Shown: piece after piece, positions 9,717 through 25,845 of the stretch
How positions within the stretch are numbered: position 1 is the first letter of the stretch
Layout of the letters: each line of letters begins with the position of its first letter
From: an uncultured Chloroflexia bacterium
GTDB lineage: Bacteria; Chloroflexota; Limnocylindria; Limnocylindrales; CSP1-4
Assembly: GCA_963752475.1 (NCBI GenBank)
Contig: CAVVYR010000006.1
Span: 799,074 to 863,073 of the forward strand
Reading direction: 5' to 3'
DNA: 64,000 nucleotides
Translations under genes and position numbers: made by a program
The notes under the pieces: model-generated
What the model was told of the DNA's origin: nothing
Database searches by the model: none
What the model saw: the letters and a program-made list of their open reading frames with translations, nothing else

Positions 9717-9922
9717 GCTGGTTCCTCCACACAACGTGTCCGCGTGCCCGGCGGCCGGGGGTTGGGCTTCATGCCCTGCAATCATCGATTATCGACGATG
9801 TCAGCCTAGATGTCTTGCTCCGAGACGAATTCGGGTGCATCGTGGAGTCGAATCGCGTGCCGCGGGCGCCATTGGTAGTAGAGGGCGCACGAAGGCTGCG
9901 TTCGGATGTCGGGATCGGGGGC

Positions 9923-10483
9923 ATGGATACCGACCTGGTGACACGAGCTCAGGCAGGGGACCGAAGCGCGTTCGCGCAGATCGCGGACGAAGTGCTCGAC
10001 CGTTTCCTGGCCATCGCACATCGCATCCTTCGCGATGGGGCCATGGCCGAGGATGCGACCCAGGCAGCGCTGCTCAGCCTGTGGCGGGATTTGCCCCGGC
10101 TGCGCGAGCCCGACCGTTTCGGCGCGTGGTCGACGCGGCTGCTGGTGAATGCCTGCTACTCGGAGGCCCGACGCGCCCGGCGCTGGCTGCCGAACCTGCC
10201 GCTCGAGGCTGTGCCTGAACCGATCGCCCCTGATGAATTCGGCGCCGTCGCCGACCGAGACGCGCTCGATCGGGCCTTCCACGATGTTCCCGTCGACCAG
10301 CGGGCGGTCATCGTCCTGCACCACTACGTCGGCATGCCCATCGAGACCGTCGCGCAGACTCTCGACATCCCGCCCGGCACGGTCCGCTCGCGCATGCACC
10401 GCGGGATGACCACGCTCCGCCGGGCCATGGAAGCCGATGTCCGACCGAATCATCGAGTCGTTCGACAGGAGGCCACGAGATGA
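9923..10483 (+). CDS. ECF sigma factor (cassette 2)
   Basis: MDTDLV..GD..AF, AEDATQ, LREPDRFGAW, GTVRSRMHR. Confidence 0.92.
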   Translation: MDTDLVTRAQAGDRSAFAQIADEVLDRFLAIAHRILRDGAMAEDATQAALLSLWRDLPRLREPDRFGAWSTRLLVNACYSEARRARRWLPNLPLEAVPEPIAPDEFGAVADRDALDRAFHDVPVDQRAVIVLHHYVGMPIETVAQTLDIPPGTVRSRMHRGMTTLRRAMEADVRPNHRVVRQEATR

Positions 10484-11247
10484 CGCACGACCGTGACCTC
10501 GACGACAGGGTCCGCACCTGGCTCGACGAGCCGCCGCCCGGTCCGCCCGATCGCGACGCCGTCTACGCCCGAGTGCTCGACCGCCTACCAGAGACCCATC
10601 AACGCCGGCACTGGTGGCCATTCCAGTGGAACCCTTTCGCCGCAGGCGCGACGCGTAGCGCCGACGCGAACGGACCACGCCCACAAGGGAGGTCCAGAAC
10701 CATGTTGAACCCAGTCCGCGCGGTGGTGCTCGTCGCCGCGCTCGCGCTCGCCAGCAGCTTCGCGATGGTGACGGAGGTGGCTGCGCCGGGGCCGATCGTT
10801 CCGGGCGCGGAGGCACCGGGCGAGGCCATCGCGCACGTCGTTGGGCAGACAAGTGGCCAACGCGAGATCGCCGAGGGTGAGATGCAGGTCACAGACCGCG
10901 CCATCGAATGGCGAGGGATGGTGGCCGAGTGGGATGTGACAGCGGACGACCCGCGCTTGAGCGGCGTGATGACGGCCGAATATGCCCTTGACAACCTCAT
11001 GGGCGTTGCCGGGGCGGCGGCCCTGGCCGGGACGCAGACGATCAGCAACGCCGATGGCGAATGGTCGGGGACGGTGGTCGGAGTCGGCGTGCCGGACACG
11101 AACGACATCCAGTTCCAGTCGGTCCTCACAGGATCGGGAGCCTATGACGGACTGACGGCCGTGGTCCGCGCCGACAACGCCGAGAACGTGCTCGTCTACG
11201 AGTTCGAGGCGGTCGTCTTCCCAGGTTCATTGCCAGGCAGCGAGTAG
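10480..11247 (+). CDS. Putative anti-sigma / exported beta-rich protein (cassette 2)
   Basis: ATGA overlap; WL.E...LPETHQRRHWW N-terminus, TM or signal segment after Met75, DPRLSG...LTGSGAYDGL domain. Confidence 0.8.
   Translation: MTHDRDLDDRVRTWLDEPPPGPPDRDAVYARVLDRLPETHQRRHWWPFQWNPFAAGATRSADANGPRPQGRSRTMLNPVRAVVLVAALALASSFAMVTEVAAPGPIVPGAEAPGEAIAHVVGQTSGQREIAEGEMQVTDRAIEWRGMVAEWDVTADDPRLSGVMTAEYALDNLMGVAGAAALAGTQTISNADGEWSGTVVGVGVPDTNDIQFQSVLTGSGAYDGLTAVVRADNAENVLVYEFEAVVFPGSLPGSE
10632..10704 (+). promoter_or_regulatory. Putative internal ECF-type promoter (CCCTTT-N16-CGTAG) plus SD (AAGGGAGGT) and internal ATG at 10702
   Basis: Motif conserved in cassettes 2, 4 and 5, including minority codons CCT and CGT; function is inferred. 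Confidence 0.55.
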
Positions 11248-11385
11248 GCGCGCTCTCGAATGCCCGCGGGCCATCCAGGCTCGCGGGCATTCTTCGATTC
11301 GAGGGACCCAGAACGCTAGCGTGCCCGTCTTACCATGTAGAGGCGCAGCAACACAGCGAGGCGCCCAAGGGCACTTTGAGGGGGA

Positions 11386-11946
11386 ATGGACACCGACCTC
11401 GTGCTTCGGGCCCAGGACGGCGACGAGATCGCGTTCGCACGCCTGGCCGACGGCGTATACGGCCGCCTGCAGCAGGTGGCCTACCGCATCCTGCGGGACC
11501 CCGAGCTGGCTCGCGACGCATCCCAGCAGGCGGCCCTCTCGATGTGGCGCCACCTGCCGGAGCTCCGAGACCCCACCCGTTTCGAGGCCTGGTGCTATCG
11601 CCTCTGCGTCAATGCGTGCCACGAGGAGTCGCGGAAGCGCAGACGCCGCCTCCCTGAGACCGAGCTGAAGCCGTGGCACGAGCCCACGGTACGTGACGAG
11701 TACCAGCGTCTCATCGATCACGACCAACTGGAACGCGCGTTCCGGCGTCTGTCATTCGAGCACCGGACGGTCCTGGTGCTGCATCACTACCTGGGGATGT
11801 CGGTAGACGAGGTCGCGACCACCCTTGACACCCCGCTCGGAACCGTCAAGTCCCGCATGAACCGAGCGCTCCGACAGTTGCGTCGGCTCCTTGCGGCCGA
11901 TGCCGCCCCGCCGCTTGCGATGAACCGACAGGAGGTCACCCGATGA
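11386..11946 (+). CDS. ECF sigma factor (cassette 3)
   Basis: Paralog of 9923..10483; LRDPTRFEAW, GTVKSRMNR. Confidence 0.92.
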   Translation: MDTDLVLRAQDGDEIAFARLADGVYGRLQQVAYRILRDPELARDASQQAALSMWRHLPELRDPTRFEAWCYRLCVNACHEESRKRRRRLPETELKPWHEPTVRDEYQRLIDHDQLERAFRRLSFEHRTVLVLHHYLGMSVDEVATTLDTPLGTVKSRMNRALRQLRRLLAADAAPPLAMNRQEVTR

Positions 11947-12656
11947 CGATCGGACACGACCTCGAGCACCGTCTCGACAGTTGGATGCAGGAAAACGCGA
12001 GCGTGCCCGACGACCTCGCCGAGGTCCTCGCGAAGCTGCCCGAGACACCACAGCGACACCATCGATGGTCGATCAGCCTCACCGATCTCACAGGGAGGAC
12101 ACGAAGCATGTTCACAGCCACACGAGTGGCCGCGTTCGTCACTATCTTCACGCTAGGAGCGACGTCTGCGCTCATCATTGCGCCGCAAGAGGAGTCGGAG
12201 CCGGTCACGGTCCCCGCAGCGGAGGCGCCCTCCCTGGACGACATGGCCCGGGTCACCTGGCATGCGTGGATGTCGAAGAACGACCCCGCCAGCGCGAGTG
12301 TGACCCAGACGGAGTACGGAGAGCTGATCGAGGGTGGTGTCGCGGAGTTCGACATCGACGCGAGCGACGATCGCCTGTCCGGCCCAGCGGAGTTTCACAT
12401 CAATTCGATGTACTTCGAGCCGGCCGACGGGCAGTACCCGGCCCAGGTATTCGTTGGCAGCGTGACCATCGAGGCTGAGGAGGGCATGTGGGAGGGCTCC
12501 TTCGTGGCCCTGGACTATCCGGGCACCCCTGACGGCGAGAGCCAACACATCCTGACGGGCACCGGCGCCTACGAGGGCCTGACGGCTGTGATGACCACGC
12601 GCGACGACGTGACCTCGGGGCTGATCTTCCCGGGCGAGCTACCCGAACTGCCGTAG
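11943..12656 (+). CDS. Putative anti-sigma / exported beta-rich protein (cassette 3)
   Basis: ATGA overlap; LPETPQRHHRW; internal GGGAGG + ATG at 12108 (MFTATRVA); DDRLSG...LTGTGAYEGL. Confidence 0.8.
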   Translation: MTIGHDLEHRLDSWMQENASVPDDLAEVLAKLPETPQRHHRWSISLTDLTGRTRSMFTATRVAAFVTIFTLGATSALIIAPQEESEPVTVPAAEAPSLDDMARVTWHAWMSKNDPASASVTQTEYGELIEGGVAEFDIDASDDRLSGPAEFHINSMYFEPADGQYPAQVFVGSVTIEAEEGMWEGSFVALDYPGTPDGESQHILTGTGAYEGLTAVMTTRDDVTSGLIFPGELPELP

Positions 12657-12667
12657 TTCTGCCCACA

Positions 12668-12705
12668 GAGAGACGCCCGCGGGACTTCCTCCGCGGGCGT
12701 CTCTC
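12668..12705. terminator. 15-bp perfect inverted repeat between convergent genes
   Basis: GAGAGACGCCCGCGG-N8-CCGCGGGCGTCTCTC. Confidence 0.75.
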
Positions 12706-12749
12706 ACGTCCAGGCCCGGAGTCTCGGGCTCCAGGCCTGGCTCGCTTCG

Positions 12750-14162
12750 TCAGCTCTCCAGATGCATTCGCTGCATCGCCGCCGAGCCGGTCTCCGTCTC
12801 CGAGGCTTCGCCAGTGACCTGGTGCCGGGTCTCGACGGTGAACTCGATGGTGGCGCTCTGGTGAGCCTCGTCCATCTGCAGGTCGCCGTAGAGCGTCGAG
12901 TTGCCGCGCTTGACCACATCGGGCCGCGGGTCGCTGTCGTAGTAGTCGATGACCACGGACGCGCTATCGGGTCCGGTGGGCAGCCAGTTGCCCACGCCGA
13001 CGCCTCGGTAGGGATCGATCGTGAGCAGGGTGCCGTCGGCATGGATGGCCGTCGTGACCGAGGGTCCGTCCTCGTGCTCCTCGACCCACAGGCTGCCCAG
13101 GCTGGGCCACCAGGCCGGGTCGACGGTCGCGGCGTCCGGCTCCGGTTGTGGCTCCGCCGGCGCCCAGTCCGTGAAGCCGTTCGAGTCGCCGTAGCGGTTG
13201 GTTGCGACTCCGGTCTCCGGGTCGATGCTGACCTCGGCGACCAAGGGCAGGGCAGCAGGATCGTCGCTTGCGAACCAGGCCGTCATGATGCCGTGGTGCT
13301 CGTCGGGCTCGGCATACAGTCCGACACCGGGGCCGACCCACGAGTTGATGCTCACCCAGGTGCCGTCCGAATGCTCGAGGTTCTGGTTGGGTCGTCCGCC
13401 GTAATCCTCGTGCGTCACGCCCAATTCGTCCGCCCTGTGCAAGTCGATGCCGATCCTGGGCTGCCAGCCGGCATCGGGCGGCGTGACCGTCTCGGCTTCG
13501 GGCGGCATCGGCGCCATCTTCTTCCGCTCCGCCGTAGAGGTGATGATGCCGAAGCTGTTCTCGTCGTAGGTCAGGGTCATGTGGTCACCGGCCTCGTCGA
13601 GTTCACCGATGAAGCGGAGCTCGGCGGTGCCGGGCTCGAGGTAGATGTAGGAGCTATCCGTGCCGGTGAAGCCGAGCTCGGCGACGAGGGAGTGGTCGCC
13701 CAGCGGCCTCCACTCCCCGAGGCCGATCCCCAGCTCGCTGTTGACGCCCGTTGCGATGCCGTCGCCATGGAAGACGTAGTAGGTGGCCGCTTCGCCGGCA
13801 TCTCGCTCGAGCCAGATGCTGCCCGGAGCGTTCTCAGGCGAGAGTGGGGCGGAAGCGCGCTCCTCTTGGCCGACGTTGAGCGCGAGCGAGCCGCTCAGCG
13901 CGATGACGGCGATGACGGCCACGATCCGTGTGGCAGTGACCATGTTCGGGTACCTCCAGTGGTGGAGCGCCCTGCCGGAACCGGGGCTACGCGTCACGCC
14001 GGGACCGAAAGGGCGCCAGTCGAGTGGCCGCAGCCACCGGTGTCTGCGCTGAGGTGTGTTCGGGAGCTGCGCGAGCACGCGGTCCAGGCCGCGGTCATCG
14101 AGCTCCGTGGGTTCTTGCATCCAGTCGTGCACGACGCGTGCCGCTTCTCGCTCGGTGGTCAT
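12750..14162 (-). CDS. Putative anti-sigma / exported protein with three internal repeats (cassette 4)
   Basis: ATGA overlap; LPNTPQRRHRW; internal GGAGG + ATG at 13943 (MVTATRIVA), TM, 3x HxDG...GxGxG(W/Y). Confidence 0.8.
   Translation of the reverse strand: MTTEREAARVVHDWMQEPTELDDRGLDRVLAQLPNTPQRRHRWLRPLDWRPFGPGVTRSPGSGRALHHWRYPNMVTATRIVAVIAVIALSGSLALNVGQEERASAPLSPENAPGSIWLERDAGEAATYYVFHGDGIATGVNSELGIGLGEWRPLGDHSLVAELGFTGTDSSYIYLEPGTAELRFIGELDEAGDHMTLTYDENSFGIITSTAERKKMAPMPPEAETVTPPDAGWQPRIGIDLHRADELGVTHEDYGGRPNQNLEHSDGTWVSINSWVGPGVGLYAEPDEHHGIMTAWFASDDPAALPLVAEVSIDPETGVATNRYGDSNGFTDWAPAEPQPEPDAATVDPAWWPSLGSLWVEEHEDGPSVTTAIHADGTLLTIDPYRGVGVGNWLPTGPDSASVVIDYYDSDPRPDVVKRGNSTLYGDLQMDEAHQSATIEFTVETRHQVTGEASETETGSAAMQRMHLES
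13941..14013 (-). promoter_or_regulatory. Putative internal ECF-type promoter plus SD and internal ATG (cassette 4)
   Basis: Minus strand CCCTTTCG-gtccc-GGCGTGACGCGTAGC; CGTAG is 43 nt before the ATG, the same spacing as cassette 2. Confidence 0.55.
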
Positions 14163-14710
14163 CGCGCCGCTCCTTCGGCCAGGGCCGCGGGGCTCGGCTC
14201 TGCGAGGGCTTGACGCATGTTGGCGAGGGCCCGATGGAGCCGCGAGTTGACGGTGCCGATCGGTACGTCGAGGGCCTCCGCGATGGCGTCGAGCTGCAGG
14301 TCGAGGTGGTAGCGCAGCACGAGCACGACTCGGTGGTCGATCGACAGCGCGGCGAAACCGCGTTCCAGTTGCTCACGATCGAGGATCCGGCCGAAGTCAT
14401 CGGGAGCGACAGGTTCCTTGGGTGCTTGCGAGCCCACGACGGGCAGCATGCGCTTGCGTCGCCGGAACTCCGCGTGACAGGCGTTGACGAGGAGACGGTG
14501 GGACCAGGCTTCGAAGCGATCGGGGTCGCGTAGTTGCGGCAGGTCGCGCCACATCAGCAGGACTGCCTGCTGGGTCGCGTCCTCGGCCGCTGGCCGGTCG
14601 CGCAGGATCCTGAAGGCGACCTGGTGCAGCCGCCCATACACCGCGTCGGCCAGCATGGCGAATGCGTGCTGGTCCCCGTTCCGAGCGTGGATCACGAGCT
14701 CTGTGTCCAT
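14159..14710 (-). CDS. ECF sigma factor (cassette 4)
   Basis: MDTELV, AEDATQQ, LRDPDRFEAW, GTVNSRLHR. Confidence 0.92.
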   Translation of the reverse strand: MDTELVIHARNGDQHAFAMLADAVYGRLHQVAFRILRDRPAAEDATQQAVLLMWRDLPQLRDPDRFEAWSHRLLVNACHAEFRRRKRMLPVVGSQAPKEPVAPDDFGRILDREQLERGFAALSIDHRVVLVLRYHLDLQLDAIAEALDVPIGTVNSRLHRALANMRQALAEPSPAALAEGAAR

Positions 14711-14836
14711 CCCCCCACCGCTCATGGCGCTGGCGTCTGAGTCGCGCCTCTGAATCGTATGGCGCACGGCAAGCGCGAAACCTTCCATCCAAGAGAACCG
14801 TCGGGTCAGCTGCGGCGCATCGGTGCCGAAACCCTG

Positions 14837-15451
14837 CTAGTCGAGCATCCCTCGCTCGACCACGAAGTCGGCGACCTTGTCCACGCCGTCGCCACCTCGA
14901 AGGTTGGTGAAGACGTACGGGCGGTCCTGGCGCACGGAGATGGCGTCCCGCTCCATGTTCATGAGCGAGGCGCCCACGGCCGGCGCCAGGTCGCTCTTGT
15001 TGATCACCAGGAGGTCGCTGTCGGTGATGCCCGGGACCCCGCGCCGCGTCGCCTTTTCACCGGCGGCCACGTCGATGACGTAGATGACGAGGTCGGTCAG
15101 CTCCGGGTCGAAGGTCGAGGAGCCCAGATCGTCTCCACCTTCGATGAAGATCGCATCGAGCCCCTGGTGGCGGGTGATGAGCGCATCCACAGCGGCTAGG
15201 TTCTGCGTCGCATCGTCCCCCACGTCGGTGTGGGGACAGTTGCCGGCGTCGAGCCCGACGATCCGATCCTCAGTCAACGCTCCACGTCGCACCAGCGCCC
15301 GTGCGTCCTCGTGGGCGTTGACGTCGTTCGTGACCACCGCCACCGAGTAGCGATCGCTCAGATGCGAACAGAGCCCAGCCACCAGCGTGGTCTTGCCCGA
15401 GCCGATCGGTCCGCCGATGCCGACGCGCAGCGTCGGGCGGGACTCGCTCAC
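14837..15451 (-). CDS. ureG: Urease accessory GTPase UreG (divergent)
   Basis: GPIGSGKT, VTND, CPH metal motif, INKSDL. Confidence 0.88.
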   Translation of the reverse strand: MSESRPTLRVGIGGPIGSGKTTLVAGLCSHLSDRYSVAVVTNDVNAHEDARALVRRGALTEDRIVGLDAGNCPHTDVGDDATQNLAAVDALITRHQGLDAIFIEGGDDLGSSTFDPELTDLVIYVIDVAAGEKATRRGVPGITDSDLLVINKSDLAPAVGASLMNMERDAISVRQDRPYVFTNLRGGDGVDKVADFVVERGMLD

Positions 15452-15897
15452 CCCTGGGAGGCCAGGTCGTGATCGTGGGCGTGGTCCTTCGTGCCGCGTT
15501 CAGGCTCGAAGGGAACCTCTTCGACAGTGACCTGTGCTCCGAGCTTGCGTACGAGATCGTCGATGGCGCGATCGTGACGGTAGCGGATGAAGCCGGGGCC
15601 GACCTGCGTGCGAACATGCCGATTGCCCAGGTGGTACGCGACGCGCGCGAGCAGCATCGCATCAGAGGAGGCGATCGTCGAGACGTCCTCGGGCGCGGCT
15701 TCGACCGCGATGATGCGTTCGTCGGAGGCCTTCATGAGGTCGCCGTCGAGCAGGACCGTTCCGCGAGGCAGGAACAAGCCCACCTCCCGGCCGCTCGCGG
15801 TGGTGGCCTTGAGCCGGCTCTTGCGTCTTAGCTCCCAGGTCAGCGCCAATCGGTCGCTCGGTTCGCCCGCGGTCGCGAGTTCGTGGACCTCCAGCAT
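15448..15897 (-). CDS. ureE: Urease accessory nickel chaperone UreE
   Basis: LPRGTVL.DGD, AYHLGNRH, PFEPE and His tail; ATG at 15897 after GAGGAGG. Confidence 0.88.
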   Translation of the reverse strand: MLEVHELATAGEPSDRLALTWELRRKSRLKATTASGREVGLFLPRGTVLLDGDLMKASDERIIAVEAAPEDVSTIASSDAMLLARVAYHLGNRHVRTQVGPGFIRYRHDRAIDDLVRKLGAQVTVEEVPFEPERGTKDHAHDHDLASQG

Positions 15898-16076
15898 CGT
15901 CTGTGCCACCTCCTCAACTGCCATCGATCTCGACGGTAGCCGAGGGGCCGGTTCGGATGACGACCTAGAGCGGTGACCTTTCCGTTGCCCTTGTGTTGCG
16001 AGTCCGGCCTGAGGTGTTCTCGCCGACATAGAACGGATGTACTATTCGTGCACGGAGGTGTTAGGATGCCGGTCCC

Positions 16077-19000
16077 GTGCCCCGACGCCGCAAGCCCGCT
16101 CCGACCGACCCGTTCGCCGCCTTCGAAGCGCCCACGCGCGAGTGGTTCGGGTCCTCGTTCGACCGGCCCACCGACGCGCAACGGCAGGGCTGGCCGGCCA
16201 TCGCGGGAGGTCAGCACACGCTGATCTGCGCGCCCACCGGCAGCGGCAAGACGCTCGCCGCCTTCCTTTGGTGTCTGGACCGCCTGAAGCACGAACCCGT
16301 GCCGTCGGAGCCCAAGGCTCGGCTGCGCGTCCTGTACGTGTCGCCCCTGAAGGCGCTCGTGCATGACGTCGACCGCAACCTGCGTTCGCCCTTGGCCGGG
16401 ATCGGGCTGGCGGCGGAGCGGCTAGGTACGCCCACGCGTGAGGTGCAGGTCGGTATGCGCACGGGTGACACACCCGCGCAGGAGCGGCGCGCCTTCGGCA
16501 AGAAGCCGCCGGACATCCTCGTGACCACGCCGGAGTCGCTCTATCTCATCCTGACCAGCCAGGCACGCGAGGCCCTGCGCAACGTGGAGTGGATCATCGT
16601 CGATGAGATCCACGCGTTGGCCGGGACCAAGCGCGGTGCCCATCTGGCCCTATCGCTGGAGCGGTTGGAATCCATGACCGACCGTCCACCGCAGCGGATC
16701 GGGCTCTCGGCCACGCAGCGACCGCTCTCGGCCGTGGCCGCATACCTCGGAGGGCGGCAGCCGGGCGACGGTGAGAGCACGGCCGCGCCTCGGCCTGTGA
16801 CGATCGTCGATGCGGGCGTACGCAAGGAGCTCGATCTGTCGGTCGTGGTGCCGGTGGAGGACATGGGCCGTCTGGGTGAGGTCATCCCGCTCGAGGAGAC
16901 ACCCGGTGGCCCGATGGATGGGCCGGCGACGCGGACCAGCATCTGGCCCTCTGTCTACCCCCGCGTACTGGAGCTCATCCGCGAGCACCGCAGCACGATC
17001 GTCTTCACCAATAGCCGGCGACTGTCGGAGCGCCTGGCGCAGAGCCTCAACGAGCTCGCAGAAGAGGACATCGCCCGAGCGCACCATGGCTCCATCGCAC
17101 GCGAGCAACGGCTGATCATCGAGGAGCAGCTGAAGCAAGGCAAGCTCCCGTGCATCGTGGCCACGTCATCGCTCGAGCTGGGTATCGACATGGGCGCGGT
17201 GGACCTGGTCATCCAGGTGGAGTCGCCGCTGTCGGTCTCGCGCGGCCTGCAGCGTGTGGGGCGTGCCGGCCATCGGGTCGGCGAGCCCTCGCGCGGCGTG
17301 ATCTTCCCCAAGTACCGCGGTGACCTGCTGGAGGCGGCGGTGGTCACGCGCATGATGCGAGACGGCGCCATCGAGCCCACGACCGTGCCCCACAACCCGC
17401 TCGACGTGCTGGCTCAGCAGATCGTGGCCACGACCCTCGACCGGGACTGGCCCATCGACGAGCTCTACGCGCTCGTGCGGCGGGCGGAGAACTTCGCCGA
17501 TCTTGGCCGGGACACGTTCGAGGCCGTGCTGGGAATGCTTGCCGGCCAATACCCCGCTGACGAGTTCGCCGAGCTCAAGCCGCGGATCGTCTGGGACCGG
17601 GTGGCCGGCAGCGTGGCGGCGCGGAAGGATGCGCGCACCGTGGCCGTGACCTCGGGCGGGACGATCCCCGATCGCGGCCTGTTCCCCGTCTTCCTCTCGG
17701 ACGACGCTGCCGAGACCGGCGGTCCGGCGAGGGCGCGCGGTCGGGGAGGGGGTCGCCGCGTCGGGGAGCTGGACGAAGAGATGGTCTACGAGGCGCGCAC
17801 CGGTGAGGTCGTGCTGCTCGGTGCCAGCGCCTGGCGCATCGAGGCGATCGAGCACGACCGGGTGTTGGTCTCGCCGGCACCGGGCGAGTCGGGCAAGGTG
17901 CCCTTCTGGAAGGGTGACGGCGTGGGCCGGCCGGTCGAGCTCGGACGTGCGCTGGGACAGTTCACCCGGGAGATCTCGGAGCAGGCCGGTGCCAAGCGCG
18001 GTGGGCGCGCAAGGGCCATAAAGCGACTGCGCGACGAGCACGACCTCGACCAGATGGCGGCCGAGAACGTGCTCTCGTACCTCGACGAGGAACGTGAGGT
18101 CACCGGCGCGCTGCCCACAGATACGACGGTGGTGCTCCAGCGGTTCCGTGACGAGCTCGGTGACTGGCGAGTCTGCCTCTTGACGCCGTTCGGGGCGCGA
18201 GTGCATGCGCCGTGGGCGCTGGCCATCGAAGCCCGTCTGCAGGCGTCGCTGGGGGTGGACGTGAAGCCGCTCTGGTCCGATGACGGCATCGTGCTTCGCC
18301 TGCCCTCCACGGACGGGTCCTACGAGCCGGGTGAGGGCCTCGAGTCGATGGCTCAGCAGGCGGAGGCGGCGGTGCTCATCGCTGCCGACGACATCGAGGA
18401 GCTGGTGACCGAGTCGGTCGGCAGCTCGGCGCTCTTCTCGAGCCGCTTCCGCGAGAATGCGGCCCGAGCGCTGTTGCTGCCTCGCCGGCGCCCCGGCCAG
18501 CGGACGCCGCTGTGGCAGACGCGGCAACGGGCCTCTCAGCTATTGGCCGTGGCCAGCCGCTACGGCTCCTTCCCGATCATCCTCGAGACCTACCGTGAGG
18601 TCCTCCGGGACGTCTTCGACCTGCCCGCGCTCCGGGGCATCCTGGCCTCGATCGAACGCCGGGAGATCCGGGTCGTGAGTGTGGAGACATCGCGCGCATC
18701 GCCCTTCGCGTCGTCCTTGCTGTTCGACTACATCGCGACCTACATGTATGAAGGTGACGCGCCGCTGGTCGATCGGCGCGCACAGGCGCTGACGCTCGAT
18801 CGCGACCTGCTCCGGGAGTTGCTCGGAGCTGAGCAGCTGCGTGACCTGCTCGATGCGGAGGCCCTGGCCGAGCTGGAGCTCGAGCTGCAGGCGCTGACCG
18901 AGGAACGGGCGGCCGGCTCGGTCGACCAGGTACAGGACCTGCTGCGGCGCCTCGGTGACCTGAGCGACGACGAGGTCGCGGCTCGGGTGCGCGGCGCTGA

Positions 19001-20759
19001 TGCCAAGGCTCGCCGCGCGGTCGCCCAGGAGTGGCTCGAGGCGCTGGTGGCAGACCGGCGAGCGGTCTCGCTACGCGTGGCTGGTGAGGTCCGCTGGATC
19101 GCGGCCGAGGACGTCGGGCGCTACCGGGATGGCGTGGGTGCATCCCCGCCGGTCGGCGTGGCCGAGGGCTTCCTGGCGCCCACGAGCGACGCGCTCGGGT
19201 CGATGCTGGCTCGGTGGGCCCGGACGCACGGTCCGTTCCACACCGAAGGGCCCGCCGACCGCTGGCAGCTACCTCGCGGAGTCGTTGAGACCGCCCTGGA
19301 GGGCCTGATGGCCGACGGTGTGCTGCTGCGGGGTGAGTTCCGACCCGGTGGCGTGGAGCGCGAATGGTGCGACCCGGAGGTACTGCGCCTCGTGCGTCGC
19401 CGTTCGCTGGCTCGGCTGCGACGCGAGATCGAGCCGGTGGAGCCGACGGCCCTGGCTCGGTTCCTGCCGGCCTGGCAAGGCGTAGGTGCGGGGGCCGCGG
19501 GCATCGACAGGCTGGCGGAGGCCATCGGCCAGCTCGAGGGTGTGGCGCTACCGGCGAGTGTGCTGGAGCGTGACGTCCTTCCAGCGCGGGTCCAGGGCTA
19601 CAGCCCCCAGATGCTCGACGAGCTGGGCGCCGCCGGCGAGGTCGTTTGGGTCGGTGCCGGGAGCCTGGGCAAGGATGATGGCCGCATCGCCTTGTATCGG
19701 CCCGATCGCCTTGCGCTGCTGCTGCCGACACGCGTCGGAGAGGACCAGCCGGGCGAGGACGCCGGGACCTGGCTGCACGAGGCGTTGCGCCAGCACCTGT
19801 CCGCGCGTGGCGCCTCGTTTCATCGTGAGTTGCTGGGTGCGGCCCTCACTGCCGCTGCGGCCGGTGAGCGCCGACGTCCAGGAGAGCGAGAGATGCTCGA
19901 TGCGCTGTGGGACCTCGTCTGGGCCGGTGAGGTCACCAACGACACGTTCCTGCCGTTGCGGGCGCTGCGCTGGCCGCGTCGAGGGGGAGGGCGGCCTGCA
20001 GCCCGGGCGCGATCGCGGATGGGTACCCGCATGGGACCGCCGGAGGCGGCGGGGCGCTGGTCGCTGGTGGAGGAGACGCTGCGGACGGCGGTCGCACTCG
20101 CCGACGGCAAGGAGCCGACGGGCACAGGACAGCGTGCCGCCCTCGCGGCCACGCTCCTCGAGCGCTATGGCGTCGTCACCCGGGACGCCGTCGCCGGTGA
20201 GAACGTGCGCGGGGGGTTCGGGGCGGTCTACCCGGTCTACCGCGAGATGGAGGAGCGCGGACGGGTGCGCCGCGGGTATTTCGTCGAAGGCCTTGGCGGT
20301 GCCCAGTTCGCCGTCGCAGGTGCGGTGGACCGGCTGCGCTCGATGCGTCGCGGCGCCGGCGCAGACTCCAGCGACGACCCCAAGACCGTGCTGCTGGCCG
20401 CAACCGACCCGGCCAACCCGTATGGTGCCGCGCTGGCGTGGCCGCAGGACGGGGTTCGGCACTCGCGGACGCCGAGCCGTTCGGCCGGCGCCTACGTCGT
20501 GCTGCACGACGGTGAACCTGTGCTCTACCTGGAGCGTGGTGGGAAGTCGCTGCTGACGTTCTCGCCGTTCGATGACGAACGCGTCGGGGGATCGGCCGTC
20601 GATGTGCTGCGAACGCTCATCGATGATGGACGCGTGAAGCGTCTGCAGCTCGAGCGCGTGGATGGCACGGCCATCGGTGAGTCGCCATCCCGGGAGCGCC
20701 TGGCCGCCCTCGGGTTCCGGCAGGCGTACCGTGGGTACGTGCTCGGCCCAGTGGGCTAG
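16077..20759 (+). CDS. lhr: Large helicase-related protein Lhr (DExH helicase with C-terminal winged-helix domain)
   Basis: APTGSGKT, SPLKAL, DEIH, LSAT, HHGS, TSSLELGID, QRVGRAGH, RRGYFVEGLGGAQFA. Confidence 0.95.
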   Translation: MPRRRKPAPTDPFAAFEAPTREWFGSSFDRPTDAQRQGWPAIAGGQHTLICAPTGSGKTLAAFLWCLDRLKHEPVPSEPKARLRVLYVSPLKALVHDVDRNLRSPLAGIGLAAERLGTPTREVQVGMRTGDTPAQERRAFGKKPPDILVTTPESLYLILTSQAREALRNVEWIIVDEIHALAGTKRGAHLALSLERLESMTDRPPQRIGLSATQRPLSAVAAYLGGRQPGDGESTAAPRPVTIVDAGVRKELDLSVVVPVEDMGRLGEVIPLEETPGGPMDGPATRTSIWPSVYPRVLELIREHRSTIVFTNSRRLSERLAQSLNELAEEDIARAHHGSIAREQRLIIEEQLKQGKLPCIVATSSLELGIDMGAVDLVIQVESPLSVSRGLQRVGRAGHRVGEPSRGVIFPKYRGDLLEAAVVTRMMRDGAIEPTTVPHNPLDVLAQQIVATTLDRDWPIDELYALVRRAENFADLGRDTFEAVLGMLAGQYPADEFAELKPRIVWDRVAGSVAARKDARTVAVTSGGTIPDRGLFPVFLSDDAAETGGPARARGRGGGRRVGELDEEMVYEARTGEVVLLGASAWRIEAIEHDRVLVSPAPGESGKVPFWKGDGVGRPVELGRALGQFTREISEQAGAKRGGRARAIKRLRDEHDLDQMAAENVLSYLDEEREVTGALPTDTTVVLQRFRDELGDWRVCLLTPFGARVHAPWALAIEARLQASLGVDVKPLWSDDGIVLRLPSTDGSYEPGEGLESMAQQAEAAVLIAADDIEELVTESVGSSALFSSRFRENAARALLLPRRRPGQRTPLWQTRQRASQLLAVASRYGSFPIILETYREVLRDVFDLPALRGILASIERREIRVVSVETSRASPFASSLLFDYIATYMYEGDAPLVDRRAQALTLDRDLLRELLGAEQLRDLLDAEALAELELELQALTEERAAGSVDQVQDLLRRLGDLSDDEVAARVRGADAKARRAVAQEWLEALVADRRAVSLRVAGEVRWIAAEDVGRYRDGVGASPPVGVAEGFLAPTSDALGSMLARWARTHGPFHTEGPADRWQLPRGVVETALEGLMADGVLLRGEFRPGGVEREWCDPEVLRLVRRRSLARLRREIEPVEPTALARFLPAWQGVGAGAAGIDRLAEAIGQLEGVALPASVLERDVLPARVQGYSPQMLDELGAAGEVVWVGAGSLGKDDGRIALYRPDRLALLLPTRVGEDQPGEDAGTWLHEALRQHLSARGASFHRELLGAALTAAAAGERRRPGEREMLDALWDLVWAGEVTNDTFLPLRALRWPRRGGGRPAARARSRMGTRMGPPEAAGRWSLVEETLRTAVALADGKEPTGTGQRAALAATLLERYGVVTRDAVAGENVRGGFGAVYPVYREMEERGRVRRGYFVEGLGGAQFAVAGAVDRLRSMRRGAGADSSDDPKTVLLAATDPANPYGAALAWPQDGVRHSRTPSRSAGAYVVLHDGEPVLYLERGGKSLLTFSPFDDERVGGSAVDVLRTLIDDGRVKRLQLERVDGTAIGESPSRERLAALGFRQAYRGYVLGPVG

Positions 20760-20816
20760 TCGTGATTCTCGGGTGTGATGAGAGCGACGCTCGCTATGGC
20801 TGACTTGCAGGCAGGC

Positions 20817-21812
20817 TCACGAGACGTAGATCTTCACATCGATGAAGCCATCGTCGCCCTTGCCGTTGAGCGACAGGCTCAAGTCACGTTCGGGTTTGCT
20901 GGGTGAGTCGGCGTCCACGGCGACCTGGTCTGGCGCGGCTTCGGCCGGGTCGTCGATCAGGAACGATGCGGCCGTGTCACCAGCATCGCGCTCGAAGTAG
21001 GTATCGCCGAGGACGGACGCATCGGTGTACCACTCGTGCTCGCTGCCGGAGGTCGACTCCACGCGGACCACGCTCAGGCTGACGTTGATGCCTGTAGGAG
21101 CGACCGTGTGGCTCGTGCCCCAGCTCTCGAATGTCTGCCGGACGGCCGCGGGGATGATCGCGAACGGGGTCGTGGGGTACTGGCCCATCCTGATGGTGTC
21201 GCCCCCACTGACGACACCGTCCTCGTTGGTGTCGACGATCTCGCTGATCATGATGTCACCGTCGTCCCACTCGTGGTTCGTGTTGACGTCGGCGTAGGCG
21301 ATGACCAGCGTGGGGGGCTCCGGGGGTACGACCAACGGCTTCTCACAGCGCACGACCGGGCCCGAGCCCGTGTTCTGGAAGCAGGTGTCGACACCGATGC
21401 CGCCGTCGATGACGTCGTTGCCCAGCTGCCCCGCCGCGAGGTCCGGTCCGGGTCCCGCGAACAGGCGATCGGGTCCGGGGCCGCCGTAGAGCTTGTCCGC
21501 CCCGGCACCACCGATGAGCTTGTCGATACCACCCTGACCCACGAGCCGGTCGTTGCCCGGACCGCCACAGATGAGGTCGTTGCCTCCGCGGCCGAAGACC
21601 TTGTCCGCCCCGCCCTTGGCCACGATGACGTCACGCTTGCTCGTGCCGATGATGCGATCGGCCTTCCTGGTGCCGACGATGGTGGCGGTCACCCCCTGGC
21701 ACTTCGGCTTGGCCGCTGACGCTGGGCTAGCGACGGTGGCCGCGGTCATGGTGGCGAGGAGCGCGGCTGAAGTGAAGAGCGCGATACCTCGGCGAAGTCG
21801 AGTGCTGTCCAT
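20817..21812 (-). CDS. Secreted protein with hemolysin-type (RTX) Ca-binding repeats
   Basis: Signal peptide, C.GVTATIVGT, GGxGxD repeats, C-terminal DxNxDG loops; SD GGGAGG. Confidence 0.8.
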   Translation of the reverse strand: MDSTRLRRGIALFTSAALLATMTAATVASPASAAKPKCQGVTATIVGTRKADRIIGTSKRDVIVAKGGADKVFGRGGNDLICGGPGNDRLVGQGGIDKLIGGAGADKLYGGPGPDRLFAGPGPDLAAGQLGNDVIDGGIGVDTCFQNTGSGPVVRCEKPLVVPPEPPTLVIAYADVNTNHEWDDGDIMISEIVDTNEDGVVSGGDTIRMGQYPTTPFAIIPAAVRQTFESWGTSHTVAPTGINVSLSVVRVESTSGSEHEWYTDASVLGDTYFERDAGDTAASFLIDDPAEAAPDQVAVDADSPSKPERDLSLSLNGKGDDGFIDVKIYVS

Positions 21813-21977
21813 GGCGCAAGGATCCTCCCTCGTCGGCCCGCGCCGGGGTCGGGCGCGTGGGCATGCGCGAAAGATACCGCCTCCGACTCGCGATAGCGAG
21901 TGATGGTCGTCGCCCGCACCCACGCGTGACGTACCGTTGCGTCCAACCGCTGAACAGCAGTCCAGGAAGGGACCTCG

Positions 21978-22292
21978 ATGACCGTCATCCGGATCAACGC
22001 CATCTCCGTGCCTGAGGCAGGCGGGGATGAGCTCGAAGCACGATTCGCCAAACGACTTGGCGCCGTCGATGAGCAGCCCGGTTTTCTGGGCTTCGACCTG
22101 CTCAGGCCCACGGGCGAGAACGAACGACGTTGGTTCGTGATGACTCGCTGGGAGTCGCAGGAGGCATTCCAGGCTTGGGTCGAGTCCACGGCGTTCCGAC
22201 ACGGCCATGCGCAGTCGGAGGGCGGCGGCCGGCCCGTGGCCACCGGGTCGGAGCTGCTCGAGTTCGAGGTGGTCCTCTCGAGCGAACGCTAG
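21978..22292 (+). CDS. Antibiotic biosynthesis monooxygenase family protein (MhuD/IsdG-like heme degradation)
   Basis: INAI.VP, RF..R, PGFLGF.LLRP, TRWES.EAF.AW, conserved His. Confidence 0.85.
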   Translation: MTVIRINAISVPEAGGDELEARFAKRLGAVDEQPGFLGFDLLRPTGENERRWFVMTRWESQEAFQAWVESTAFRHGHAQSEGGGRPVATGSELLEFEVVLSSER

Positions 22293-22313
22293 GCTGCCGG
22301 GCAGACCAGGCGG

Positions 22314-23246
22314 CTACGTCGGGGCCTGTCCTGGCTCGTTTGCCAACGGCTCGGTTTCTGCGACCGTCTTCCCCCCGGCATCCCCTTCGTCGAGGCCGAA
22401 GAAGTGCCGGCCATGTCGGTACGCCGCATCCCAGGCGTGGGCCACTCGCCCGGGGGCGTTCCACCATGTCGTGAACGCGTCGCGCACGACCTCGCGATCC
22501 TCGCGGGCCTGCTCGCCCCAGGAGCGCCACTCGAACCAGCGCGGGTGGGCCCAGATCCAGGGCACGGCTGCCCAGATCAGCAGGATGTAGTCGAGGCGCA
22601 GCGGCCGAGGGAAGTTGATGACCAGGTCCAGCTGCCGGACGACCTGAGGCCAGACGGCCAGCGTCAGCACGCCGAACAGGACCATCCAGGCGATGCCCCA
22701 CAGGCGCGTCCTCGGCTTGAGGATGAGGAACAGCAACAGCGGGAACCACTTCAGGGCGGTCGCCAGTGCCCAGAAGAACCCGCCGAGCCGCGGTCCGACG
22801 AAGTGCGCCGCCCAGATGCCCATCGCGCAGAGCAGCGTGATGTTGCCGGTGTCGAGCGTGGCGGCCAGGGGGATGGTGATGATGACCACGAGGATCGCCG
22901 TCGCCATCGGGTGCTGACGGTACGCCCAGGCCACGCTCCAGCCGAAGAGCAGCAGGTTGACCATCCGATAGACGAACCAGGCCGTCTCCCATGGCAGCGC
23001 GGCCCAGGGCGTGAAGATCGGTAGCGACCACGACCAGTAGACGTAGGGCATATACGGCGGAGGAGGGTCGAGCGGGTCACCGCCGCTGAGCCAGAGGCGG
23101 ACGCCACCCCAGTAGGCGCGCGCGTCGGCGCCGACGAGGTCACCTCGGGCGATGATCCAGACCGCGATGGCCGCGCCACAGACGACCAGGATGAGGATGG
23201 CGGCCAGCCGCACGGGGTCTCGCGCGAAGCTCAGATTCGGGCGCAT
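22314..23246 (-). CDS. GT-C (glycosyltransferase family 87-like) polytopic membrane protein
   Basis: D..AYW, PYVY, GNI and ALK.FP motifs with multiple TM helices. Confidence 0.7.
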   Translation of the reverse strand: MRPNLSFARDPVRLAAILILVVCGAAIAVWIIARGDLVGADARAYWGGVRLWLSGGDPLDPPPPYMPYVYWSWSLPIFTPWAALPWETAWFVYRMVNLLLFGWSVAWAYRQHPMATAILVVIITIPLAATLDTGNITLLCAMGIWAAHFVGPRLGGFFWALATALKWFPLLLFLILKPRTRLWGIAWMVLFGVLTLAVWPQVVRQLDLVINFPRPLRLDYILLIWAAVPWIWAHPRWFEWRSWGEQAREDREVVRDAFTTWWNAPGRVAHAWDAAYRHGRHFFGLDEGDAGGKTVAETEPLANEPGQAPT

Positions 23247-23293
23247 CCGAAGCATCGTACCGCCGAGCGGCGCAGGCCATAGACTCGTTGCCG

Positions 23294-24476
23294 ATGACGA
23301 CGACCCCGAGCGCGACGACGCTGGGGCGGCTGCGCGACGAGGTCCAGCGCCGACTGCCCGACTACCTGACGGACCTCGAGACCATCGTCAACATCGAGTC
23401 CGGGTCCTACACCAAGTCCGGCGTCGACGAGGTGGCGAACTGGATTGCCGGCCGGCTCGCGAACCTCGGCGCGGCCATCGAATGGGACCGGAACGAGGAA
23501 CTGGGCGACACCGCGGTGGCCACCCTGGAGGGCTCCGCCGGTGGGCCGACGATCCTGCTCATCGGCCACACCGACACCGTGTTCGACCCCGGCTTTCTCG
23601 CCAAGCGCCCGTTCGGGATCGACCGCGACAGGATCGTGGGTCCGGGTGTCAGTGACATGAAGTCGGGCCTGCTCACCGGTCTCTATGCCATCGACGCGTT
23701 GCTGACGGTCCTCGACGGCAAGCAGCCTCCCTTTGGCCGGCTCATCTACATCGTCAACCCGGACGAGGAGATCGGCTCGCCGGCCAGCGTCGATCTCATC
23801 GCGAAGTTGGCGCAGGGGGCGGATGCGGCCTTCGTGATGGAAGCTGCCCGAGCGAACGGGGACATCGTCTCGGCGCGCAAGGGCATGATGCACATCCGGG
23901 CCACGATCCAGGGGCGATCGGCCCATGCCGGCGTCGAGCCGGAGAAAGGCCGCAGCGCGACGCTCGAGGCCGCGCACAAGACCATCGCCCTGCATGCCCT
24001 CAACGGACGCTGGTCCGGCGTGTCGGTCAATGTCGGCGAGATCAAGGGCGGCACACGCCCGAACATCGTGGCCGAGGAGGCCGTGATGACCATCGATATG
24101 CGCGCGCGCCTGGCAGTGGAGCAGGACGAAGCCGAGGCTGCCATCTACGAGATCCTCGAGTCGTCAGTCGTGCCGGACATCTGCGACCACGATCGAGAAG
24201 CTCGCCGGTACCCGCCCGATGGAGAAGACCCCGGCATCGGCCGAGCTCGTCGATGCCGCAGTCGCCATCGCCGCCGAGCTGGGGTTCGAGCTGGCCGATG
24301 CCGAGACCGGCGGGGGATCGGACGCGAACACGACGGCCGCGGTCGGCGCGCCCTCGGTCGACGGGCTCGGGCCGGTGGGCGGCAACGACCACACGCCGCT
24401 CGAGTACATCGAGAAGAGCAGCATCGTCCCGAGGACGACGCTGCTCGCTGCGTTGCTGCTGTCAGTCGACGGCTAG
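23294..24476 (+). CDS. M20 family metallopeptidase (glutamate carboxypeptidase-like); one-base frameshift near 24182
   Basis: GHTDTV, GPGVSDMKSG, DEEIGS, AHAG; C-terminus GGGSDAN...DGLG..GGNDH in the next frame. Confidence 0.88.
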
Positions 24477-24490
24477 AGCGCCTCGAGCGG

Positions 24491-25289
24491 TTACTCCGGC
24501 GCCTCGGGAAGCTCGCCTGGGAAGAGACCCCTTCGAAGTCCATCCAGAGCCCCCACGTGTCCTGGGACAGTGCTCGTGAGAGCGCGACAGGCCCTCGTAG
24601 GCGCCTTCGCCACGAACCGCATGGCGTAGGTCATCGTCCGGTCCTCGTGGGTGCTCGGTAGCCCCAGTTCGACGTCGACACCCAGTGTCCATCCTCGTTC
24701 GGTGAGCGACGGCAGCCGACGTTGCGCAACACCCCAGTTGGGTCGGCGTCGTACTTGTAGTAGTCGTGGACCGAGTGCATGTTGCCGGTGAAACGGGGGT
24801 CGTTGACCATCGACGGGGCAGTTGCGTAGCGTCTCACCCTCGATGATCGCACGACCCCATCGTTCTCGGGTCGTCCGCCGTATCCGCCGGTGGACTGCAC
24901 TGCACTCGTGCAGGTGAAGCCGCCGAAATCGGCTGGGTCGATGTCGTCCATCCGTGACGGCCCGGGGCCAGAGGGCAGCGTCGCTTCCGTGAGGGGATGG
25001 CGATGAAGGTCAGGCTCCCGGCGAGTGCCAGGATGGCCACCGCGGCCAGCGACGCGTGTGGCTGTGAACATGGATCTGGCATCTCCTTCGTTCGGGGTGT
25101 GGCGCCTCCGACGTCGGCGCTACGCGTCGCGCCGAACCCGAAAGGGAACCACCTGAATGGCCACCAGCGCCGGCGCTGGGGCACAGAGGGGAGTCGATCG
25201 ATCGTCTGGAAGAGGGTGTGGTCGTCGAGCGTGGGGGCCGGCTCCGACAGCCACTGCTCGAGCTCGCGCGTCACGTCCCGCTCGTTCAT
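24491..25289 (-). pseudogene. Cassette 5 anti-sigma/exported protein, multiple frameshifts
   Basis: MNERDV..WLSEP..LPSVPQRRRWWPFRWFPFGFGATRS; MFTATRVA at 25071; DPRFTG, GEGAYEGL and FPGELPEAPE* fall in different frames. Confidence 0.7.
25069..25146 (-). promoter_or_regulatory. Putative internal ECF-type promoter plus SD (AAGGAG) and ATG at 25071 (cassette 5)
   Basis: Minus strand CCCTTTCG-ggttc-GGCGCGACGCGTAGC. Confidence 0.5.
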
Positions 25290-25845
25290 GCCGGCACCTT
25301 CGTCTCGAATGGCTGTCGGTGGCCACCCGGTCGTCCGCCTCGAGGGCGGCGCGCAGCGTGCGCAAGGCCCGTCGGAGCCGCGAGCGCACGGTCTCCACCG
25401 GTGCGCCGACCGTCTCGGCGACTTCCCTGATGGGCAAGCCCAGGTAGTGATGAAGTCGACCACGGTGCGCTGTTCGACGGGCAGCCGAAGGAATCCGCGC
25501 TCGAGGGCATCGCGATCGATGACGGCCGAGTAGTCGTCGCCGGGCGCGCCGGGCTCGATGTGGTCGAGCGGCACCTCCGGCAACCTCGGTCGAGCACGCT
25601 TCGTTGGGCGAGCAGGTGCGCACGAGGATCCGATAGGACCAGCCGCTGAACCGAGCGGGATCACGCAGCTGGGCCAGGTCCTGCCAGGAGCGCAGGAGCG
25701 CCTGCTGGACGGCGTCCTCGGCGAGTGCGGCGTCACGCAGGATGCGGCAGGCGACGGCGTGCATCCGGGGCGCGATGCGGGTAGCGAGCATGGCGAAGGC
25801 CGCCTCGTCCCCCCGTCGTGCTCGGACCACGAGCTCGTCGTCCAC
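25286..25845 (-). pseudogene. ECF sigma factor (cassette 5), frameshifted
   Basis: MDDELV..GDEAAF..LRDPARFSGW, then DRDALERGF in another frame, then HHYLGL..ETVRSRLRR. Confidence 0.75.

Follow-up and report, generated by a model that had tools for sequence, protein, structure and literature searches.

Anti-sigma factors of the RseA/RsiW type are single-pass membrane proteins that act on extracytoplasmic function (ECF) sigma factors and are subject to regulated proteolysis. Here, we describe ECF sigma/anti-sigma cassettes in a 64,000-nucleotide (nt) stretch of DNA, referred to as the window, from an uncultured Chloroflexia bacterium (GenBank assembly GCA_963752475.1, contig CAVVYR010000006.1, positions 799,074 to 863,073). 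Three anti-sigma genes of the window share a motif of two conserved blocks, which an initial annotation had taken for a promoter hidden in the coding sequence (CDS). Like RseA and RsiW, the products of these genes are encoded downstream of, and translationally coupled to, an ECF sigma factor, and they combine a cytoplasmic sigma-binding domain with one transmembrane (TM) helix and an extracytoplasmic domain. Unlike RseA and RsiW, they fall into no Pfam or NCBIfam family, lack a zinc-binding HxxxCxxC motif and have a very short N-terminal domain of two helices, a DUF3224/allene-oxide-cyclase-like ectodomain, an internal ribosome-binding site (RBS) and a hairpin in the coding region. We regard it as moderately probable that the anti-sigma mRNAs carry two nucleotide signals within the CDS—an internal RBS found family-wide and, in two subfamilies, a stem-loop ahead of that RBS—and that two protein forms are made.

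Internal in-frame starts that yield N-terminally truncated proteoforms occur in bacteria and archaea and are familiar from ClpB, IF2 and CheA. Alternative starts of this kind are described in a preprint based on retapamulin ribosome profiling (bioRxiv 10.1101/520783), and a report on Cas11b presents its production from inside cas8b as internal in-frame translation initiation (PMC11899642). As in those systems, the anti-sigma genes contain a Shine-Dalgarno (SD) sequence and an in-frame start inside a longer open reading frame, and the short product would lack the N-terminal domain. They differ in that the site lies at a domain boundary of an anti-sigma factor, is conserved over ~100 divergent paralogues and orthologues, and would give rise to a membrane-anchored sensor without an output domain. 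A full-text literature search found neither feature, internal start or hairpin within the CDS, described for anti-sigma genes.

The conservation of an internal SD sequence and start codon throughout the family is strongly supported by comparison of its members, and it is a stronger finding than the motif itself. In anti-sigma gene 1 (AS1, 255 amino acids; 10480-11247, plus strand), a GGGAGG that writes Gly-Arg with the rare AGG codon (10687-10692) precedes an in-frame ATG (10702-10704), the proposed start of a short isoform, which encodes Met75 and stands three codons before the predicted TM helix (residues 78-95). Equivalent elements occur in anti-sigma gene 2 (AS2; TGGAGG at 13953-13958 and in-frame ATG at 13941-13943, minus strand, before the TM helix), in anti-sigma gene 4 (GGGAGG at 12093-12098 and ATG at 12108-12110, plus strand) and in cassette 3 (AAGGAG at 25083-25088 and ATG at 25069-25071, minus strand). 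Among 97 non-identical family members, 79% have an SD core at positions -17 to -5, as opposed to 10% (maximum 20%) after synonymous resampling, and the mean energy of the duplex with the anti-SD sequence is -9.0 kcal/mol, compared with -3.6 in the resampled sets. The 3′ tail of the genome's own 16S rRNA reads CCUCCUUUCU, to which the internal SD is complementary. Of the Arg codons within the last seven codons ahead of the start, 77% are AGG or AGA; further upstream in the genes the share is 9%, and over the genome it is 5.3%. Different residues—GR, WR, KE, GG or RG—spell out GGGAGG, TGGAGG, AAGGAG, AGGAGG or AAGGGGG 6-9 nt before the start, which is ATG in 88 of the 97 members and GTG in 9. 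Met75 and Arg71 are invariant in 18 of 18 AS1 homologues, and four of five distant relatives from soil keep (C/T)GGAGG-N6-9 followed by ATG or, in one of these four, by GTG. The N-terminus of the putative short product, Met-x-x-x-(Arg/Lys) followed by a hydrophobic helix, resembles a signal anchor.

The initial annotation had noted that the CGTAG of its motif lies 43, 43 and 48 nt before an in-frame ATG preceded by an SD. The distances and the SD sequences (GGGAGG, TGGAGG or AAGGAG) are as described; in cassette 3, though, the ATG is out of frame with the N-terminal domain. The SD and ATG are real and conserved well beyond the three genes, and because of this, a second product without the sigma-binding domain, which the annotation had also envisaged, is plausible.

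The AlphaFold2 model of AS1 has N-terminal helices at residues 4-16 and 25-35, a low-confidence stretch at 45-77, the TM helix at 78-95 and an all-beta ectodomain at 118-248, and together with a fold search this suggests that a domain of two helices for sigma binding is joined by a disordered linker to the TM helix and a beta-barrel ectodomain. The residues encoded by the hairpin fall in the linker at 45-77, which has a predicted local distance difference test score (pLDDT) below 50. Fold searches with the ectodomain returned DUF3224- and allene-oxide-cyclase-like barrels with TM-scores of 0.63-0.76 on the target. Modelled with high confidence, the ectodomain (residues 118-248; window 10830-11225) is an eight-stranded barrel like those of DUF3224, allene oxide cyclase, dirigent proteins and AbyU. 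Barrels of the DUF3224/allene oxide cyclase type often hold small hydrophobic ligands.

The partner of AS1 is ECF sigma factor gene 1 (SIG1; 9923-10483, plus strand), whose stop codon overlaps the AS1 start (ATGA). Its product matches Pfam Sigma70_r2 and Sigma70_r4_2 and lies above the cut-off of NCBIfam sigma70-ECF; the best NCBIfam subfamily, SigE-fam_strep, scores under its cut-off. Modelled as a complex, SIG1 and AS1 residues 1-50 reach a score of 0.88, a mark that 116 of 157 solved complexes attain, as do 2 of 215 mismatched pairs, and the best of three controls reaches 0.01. Over the runs, at least 96% of contacts agree, the partner's pLDDT is at least 80 and the contacts fall on sigma-2 and sigma-4; this pass may rest on likeness, because similar sigma/anti-sigma complexes have already been solved. 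A Pfam and NCBIfam search of AS1, AS2 and anti-sigma gene 4 returned no family, including described anti-sigma domain families such as zf-HC2 or RskA. On the basis of the models, we accept the in silico label of single-pass membrane anti-sigma factors for AS1-type partners. The family is greatly expanded: this genome has 23 sigma paralogues, each with a partner gene, and 35 of 49 genomes of the genus contain matches. The 19 database homologues of AS1 come from metagenomes, and the sole name given to them is 'hypothetical protein'.

The second signal is the motif that the initial annotation had flagged. CCCTTTCG-N5-GGCGYGACGCGTAGC, 28 nt long, matches without mismatch at three sites, exactly where the annotation had placed it: 10632-10659 (plus strand) in AS1, 13986-14013 (minus strand) in AS2 and 25119-25146 (minus strand) in cassette 3. 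None of 100 dinucleotide shuffles contains a match, and a scan of the whole genome (4,246,097 bases, 68.1% GC, 38 contigs) finds these three sites only. The shorter form CCCTTT-N16-CGTAG likewise returns the same three sites genome-wide, and relaxing the gap to N15-17 adds one unrelated site. Each copy sits in a gene located directly behind an ECF sigma gene, with whose stop codon it overlaps (ATGA), and the sigma partners consist of regions 2 and 4 only, as judged by Pfam and NCBIfam. The motif had been assigned to three ECF partner genes, and all three do follow ECF sigma genes; the third cassette, however, is decayed. The motif is read as CCT TTC nnn nnn GGC GYG ACG CGT AGC, i.e. P F x x G A/V T R S. 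Its CCT and CGT were rightly called minority codons: over the genome, Pro is written CCT in just 6.3% of cases and Arg is written CGT in 12.4%.

To our reading of homologous cassettes, which were gathered with a protein profile or with a peptide pattern from another part of the protein and without use of the DNA motif, the constraint lies on nucleotides and not on the peptide alone. In 12 homologues from six clades, between-clade codon identity at identical residues is 351/437 (80%) in the motif region and 636/1527 (42%) in the rest of the genes, with the proviso that these pairs, like related sequences in general, are not independent. The initial annotation had called for just such a codon alignment, and synonymous constraint is what it reveals. 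In these 12 homologues, Ala is GCG in 11/11, Thr ACG in 12/12, Arg CGT in 11/11 and Ser AGC in 11/11 cases, and other conserved Pro, Thr and Arg columns of the same sequences use three to four codons; a second A-T-R tripeptide, 17 codons downstream, varies freely in its codons. Fifteen metagenome loci repeat the pattern (CGT 14/15, GCG 14/15, ACG 15/15, AGC 15/15), as do 15 rows of the close subfamily, where the Arg of G-A-T-R-S is CGT throughout. Across the sampled homologues, G-A-T-R-S is thus written GGC GCG ACG CGT AGC nearly without exception. The two blocks differ in this respect, block 2 being invariant and the Pro codon of block 1 variable: CCT 7, CCG 3, CCA 1 and CCC 1 in the 12 homologues, and CCT 7, CCC 5, CCG 2 and one Leu codon in the metagenome set. 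A sister subfamily with the peptide HGF(R/G)SGATR (the HGF subfamily) has a block 1 (CTTTCGGTCC) whose nucleotides are identical to those of the AS2 type, though read in a different frame. Taken together, codon identity within and between genes indicates that the motif is under nucleotide-level constraint. The conserved Pro of a W-W-P-F peptide upstream of the motif is also encoded by a rare codon, CCA, in 10/10 cases (window 10613-10623 and homologues); it lies upstream of the hairpin described below and is not explained by it.

Folding suggests what this constraint may serve. The motif forms the 5′ two-thirds of a hairpin of ~41 nt: box 2 (GGCGCGACGCGTAGC) supplies the apical stem and loop, box 1 the basal 5′ arm, and both box 1 and the variable N5 pair with sequence 3′ of box 2. 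The annotation had described the N5 core and the flanks as divergent. N5 does differ between copies, but it co-varies with the sequence after box 2 such that pairing is kept. At its centre, GGCGC-GACGCGTA-GCGCC forms a stem with an 8-nt loop, and the stem extends outward in most members. In AS1, the predicted stem-loop spans 10633-10673 (plus strand; minimum free energy [MFE] -21.0 kcal/mol, z = -2.05) with the apical loop GACGCGTA at 10650-10657, and a covariance model matches at 10618-10686 (E = 1.4e-11). The AS2 stem-loop spans 13972-14012 (minus strand; MFE -26.0 kcal/mol, z = -2.32; model E = 5.3e-8), and that of cassette 3 spans 25105-25145 (minus strand; 7-bp apical stem, z = -0.99; model E = 3.1e-12). 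The hairpin ends ~13 nt upstream of the internal SD and occupies codons of the disordered cytoplasmic linker.

Across 40 codon-anchored sequences, 74.5% of the cells of a 15-pair structure are paired, and sliding the 3′ partners lowers this share to 37-50%. In 35 cells both partners are changed, versus 17.6 in shuffles, and the covariation score is 0.233 versus 0.180; neither value is reached by any of 500 shuffles. For these counts, the register of the MFE fold (i + j = 72) was used for the outer stem, a first register (i + j = 73) having paired poorly. The core pairs 27-32/41-46 are formed in 222 of 240 cells, and compensated arms include GGTGC/GCACC (locus L151), CAGCGC/GCGCTG (L162) and AGCGC/GCGCT. 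RNAalifold, applied to a region of 126 columns, recovers the apical stem alone, with a positive covariation term. Relative to dinucleotide shuffles, the 48-nt segment has a mean z of -2.02 and falls below -2 in 24 of the 40 sequences. The HGF subfamily has the same loop core on different arms, with stems of 7-14 pairs, and its 56 core cells comprise 46 Watson-Crick pairs, 9 G.U, 1 A.C and no other combination. This excess of G.U over A.C speaks for pairing in the sense-strand RNA and not for a DNA palindrome. The conserved apical loop, (G)ACGCG(U/A), and its hairpin are confined to the GATRS subfamily and the sister HGF subfamily. With the covariance model, this genome yields four sites, and the 49 genus genomes yield 27 places spread over 14 of them; all 27 lie inside the N-terminal parts of listed anti-sigma genes, two of them outside the training set. 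An Rfam scan of 9700-14900 gave no family at the hairpin sites. Its lone match there, ftsZ-DE at 12632-12707 (plus strand) by the end of anti-sigma gene 4, scores 28.3 bits against a gathering score of 72.2 and is probably due to chance. All in all, the motif most likely represents an RNA that folds into a stem-loop and not a promoter.

How could the two signals act together? Ribosomes would also start at the internal ATG, giving a membrane-anchored beta-barrel ectodomain without the sigma-binding domain next to the full-length anti-sigma factor. The short form would be unable to hold the sigma factor and could compete with the full-length protein for a ligand, a partner or the site-1 protease. 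For its part, the hairpin would most likely act in cis to tune the stability or the translation of the internal cistron, be it by stabilising the 5′ end of a transcript that is processed or begins internally, or by modulating how 30S subunits gain access. It is an add-on, because it is found in two subfamilies only and other clades show no excess of structure upstream of their internal start.

Several observations weigh against this account of two signals and two proteins. GC-rich sequence folds easily, and the structure was derived from the same sequences that were used for counting pairs. Because the apical stem of the main subfamily is nearly invariant, most of the covariation stems from eight HGF members and a few others; in the main subfamily itself, pairing fails in 38 of 224 core cells, for the most part at the outermost pair. 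The hairpin does not account for the invariance of the loop sequence. Other clades with the internal SD and ATG show no excess upstream structure (mean z -0.15 to -0.5), and because they keep both elements in its absence, the hairpin is not required for internal initiation. On the protein side, the conserved Met and Gly-Arg could serve roles of their own, and SD-like tracts can also be pause sites. In addition, all genomes are incomplete assemblies of uncultured organisms. A more specific link between hairpin and RBS, in which the CU tract of block 1 masks the internal SD, fares less well: in partition-function calculations the pairing of the two averages 0.13 and reaches at least 0.2 in 8 of 30 sequences, and the CU tract chiefly closes the basal stem. 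Such a switch is possible, if weakly supported. When the pairing of CCCUUUC with the internal SD was scored in 14 sequences, 81% of cells were paired but covariation was weak, with 17-50 of 500 shuffles reaching it.

An extended version of this account would be two genes in one frame: an anti-sigma family with an internal RBS, whose sigma-blind, membrane-anchored sensor barrel competes for ligand or protease and thereby sets the threshold of the switch, plus an RNA device in one subfamily. Such a device would determine how much of each form is made, or even divide the protein, leaving the sigma-binding peptide free and the sensor separate. Its parts would be the stem-loop with its conserved loop and a CU tract able to pair with either a purine tract close by or the internal SD, half of the members adding a slippery heptamer and a stop in the -1 frame. 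We consider this combination possible but doubtful as a whole.

The promoter proposed initially is unlikely. According to this proposal, CCCTTT-N16-CGTAG is an internal ECF promoter from which the released sigma factor transcribes the 3′ part of its own anti-sigma gene. Autoregulated ECF promoters have a GGAAC-like -35 and a CGT-like -10 element, CGT being a common core of ECF -10 boxes, and the motif shares with them its two-block look and a second block containing CGT; the corresponding position of the sister subfamily reads CGA, AS1 has GGAAC just upstream of the motif, and the motif stands 43 nt ahead of an SD and ATG. The family offers a standard for comparison. A motif common to the upstream regions of 101 of its sigma genes reads GGAAC-like ... 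C(A/G)TAC ... TAGAGG and is situated 26-83 nt ahead of the start codon (28-66 in 100 of 101); it is probably an autoregulated promoter together with the 5′ end of the transcript. In the window, it was found by motif discovery in these 101 regions upstream of sigma gene 1 (GGAG..TCG .. CCATTGG .. TAGAG at 9840-9883, plus strand; the second-best genome match of a clade matrix) and, by motif discovery and the clade matrix, upstream of sigma gene 2 (GGAAGGTTTCG-N14-CATACGATTCAGAG at 14748-14791, minus strand). At loci L047-L146 its elements are GGAAC-like, ~21 nt, C(A/G)TAC and T.TAGAGG, and many of these loci continue with a leader hairpin of the GAGGACCG...CGGTCC type; the distance from GGAAC to CATAC exceeds that of textbook ECF promoters.

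Measured against this sigma-upstream motif, the internal blocks fit poorly. Its matrix does align best to the three sites in a single register, TTTCG-N14-C(A/G)TA, yet the family matrix ranks them 601, 2031 and 16,119 among 8.49 million genome positions, and worse still with the full matrix. The family matrix was used because the clade matrix, made from nine sigma-upstream sites, is over-fitted and recovered just its own two sites genome-wide; among its matches listed, the 60 best per contig and strand, none of the three sites appears. In the 260 nt before the internal ATG, the best score equals the null median, and 0 of 99 members pass the 99th percentile of the null. Scans of 10450-10760 for a sigma-70-type promoter or an intrinsic terminator found none of either. 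Neither AS2 nor AS3 has the GGAAC, the Pro codon of box 1 varies, and the internal element is identical across clades whose cognate sigma genes have differing upstream motifs. The annotation had further proposed a search for copies outside coding regions: there are none, all three in the genome and all 27 in the genus being located inside anti-sigma genes. Finally, unlike the boxes of an ECF promoter, the blocks pair with each other's flanks as RNA, and neither palindromic symmetry nor covariation nor G.U pairs would be predicted for a promoter. With its boxes accounted for as parts of a hairpin, the two-box promoter is not borne out.

It is quite unlikely, too, that the purine tract serves to pause translation and that the Met is a structural residue, so that a single protein is made and the hairpin has an unrelated role. 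A role as pause signals ahead of TM segments has been proposed for SD-like tracts within genes, and Met and Gly-Arg are indeed conserved as residues. However, clades that differ in their residues share a fixed spacing of 6-9 nt to the ATG, the codon is GTG where Met is replaced, and the residues after Met look like the N-terminus of a signal anchor.

A programmed -1 ribosomal frameshift, with C CCU UUC as the heptamer and the stem-loop as its stimulator, strikes us as improbable. In this scheme the -1 frame would end at the conserved TAG and free the sigma-binding domain, with possible re-initiation at the internal ATG. Signals of the dnaX type consist of a slippery heptamer, a spacer and a stem-loop, and all three window copies have the corresponding parts: C CCU UUC, a short spacer, a GC-rich hairpin and a nearby TAG in the -1 frame. 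C CCT TTC follows the X XXY YYZ pattern 3-6 nt before the stem (10633-10658, 13987-14012 and 25120-25145), with the TAG eight codons on. CCT is also much commoner at the heptamer than its genome usage. Unlike in dnaX, however, the heptamer is intact in just 14 of 29 subfamily members, whereas hairpin and TAG persist; the HGF subfamily reads the same nucleotides in another frame, and its loop is without a stop codon; and in many members the heptamer itself is part of the basal stem. Two further candidates were rejected: an alternative-frame open reading frame ending at the TAG ranges from 10 to 353 codons and has no conserved start, and an antisense start codon arising from CCA TTC is at odds with the AS2 clade, which keeps CCA without CAT.

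Very improbable is a DNA operator bound by a dimeric regulator. GGCGCgACG abutting CGTaGCGCC makes a 16-of-18 palindrome with eight of nine symmetric pairs, loop positions included, and a 17-nt stretch identical to the hairpin core (GGCGCGACGCGTAGCGC) recurs on the opposite strand at 572499-572515 of contig C8 in genome G000, in an unrelated gene for a multi-pass membrane protein beside a MarR-like gene. By our estimate, though, GCGC.ACGCGT.GCGC is expected ~0.26 times by chance, so the extra copy may be a chance occurrence. Moreover, a DNA palindrome does not tolerate the 9-to-1 distribution of G.U versus A.C in the HGF core, HGF loops such as ACGCGA are not palindromic, and the stem extends to ~15 irregular pairs with bulges.

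That the peptide alone is conserved and the codons agree through recent ancestry or gene conversion between paralogues can be largely dismissed: the three copies do lie within 15 kb and sequences within clades are similar, but codon identity between clades is 80% in the motif against 42% outside, the same codons recur in metagenome relatives with 31-78% protein identity, the central N5 diverges as a conversion tract would not, and the HGF subfamily keeps block 1 in a different frame.

The remaining cassettes of the window show the two signals in different states. AS2 (470 amino acids; 12750-14162, minus strand) follows ECF sigma gene 2 (14159-14713, minus strand; Pfam and NCBIfam). The fourth cassette (11386-12656, plus strand), made up of ECF sigma gene 4 (11386-11946; Pfam) and anti-sigma gene 4 (11943-12656), has neither motif nor hairpin and retains the internal SD and ATG. 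Cassette 3 (24631-25845, minus strand) is a decayed sigma/anti-sigma pair with frameshifts in both genes—in the sigma gene, before the ATG, after MFTATRV and after the TM helix—and either its decay is recent or the assembly contains errors there. Its hairpin sequence is kept exactly despite these frameshifts. Between cassettes 2 and 3 lies an open frame of 1560 codons (16077-20759, plus strand).

For sequence-only scans, the case carries a caution: two conserved blocks around a variable core within a gene may look like a hidden promoter and can be a folded RNA. If the account given here is correct, the internal RBS, written through rare codons, would be a clear and testable case of selection for such a site. 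Both features are open for a first description, because the family is unnamed in Pfam and NCBIfam and known just from uncultured assemblies. As a rule, an anti-sigma factor is regarded as one product that is present in step with its sigma factor. With a conserved second start that makes the sensor half alone, many ECF switches would at once gain a competitor or decoy of their own, ~23 such cassettes being present in this genome.

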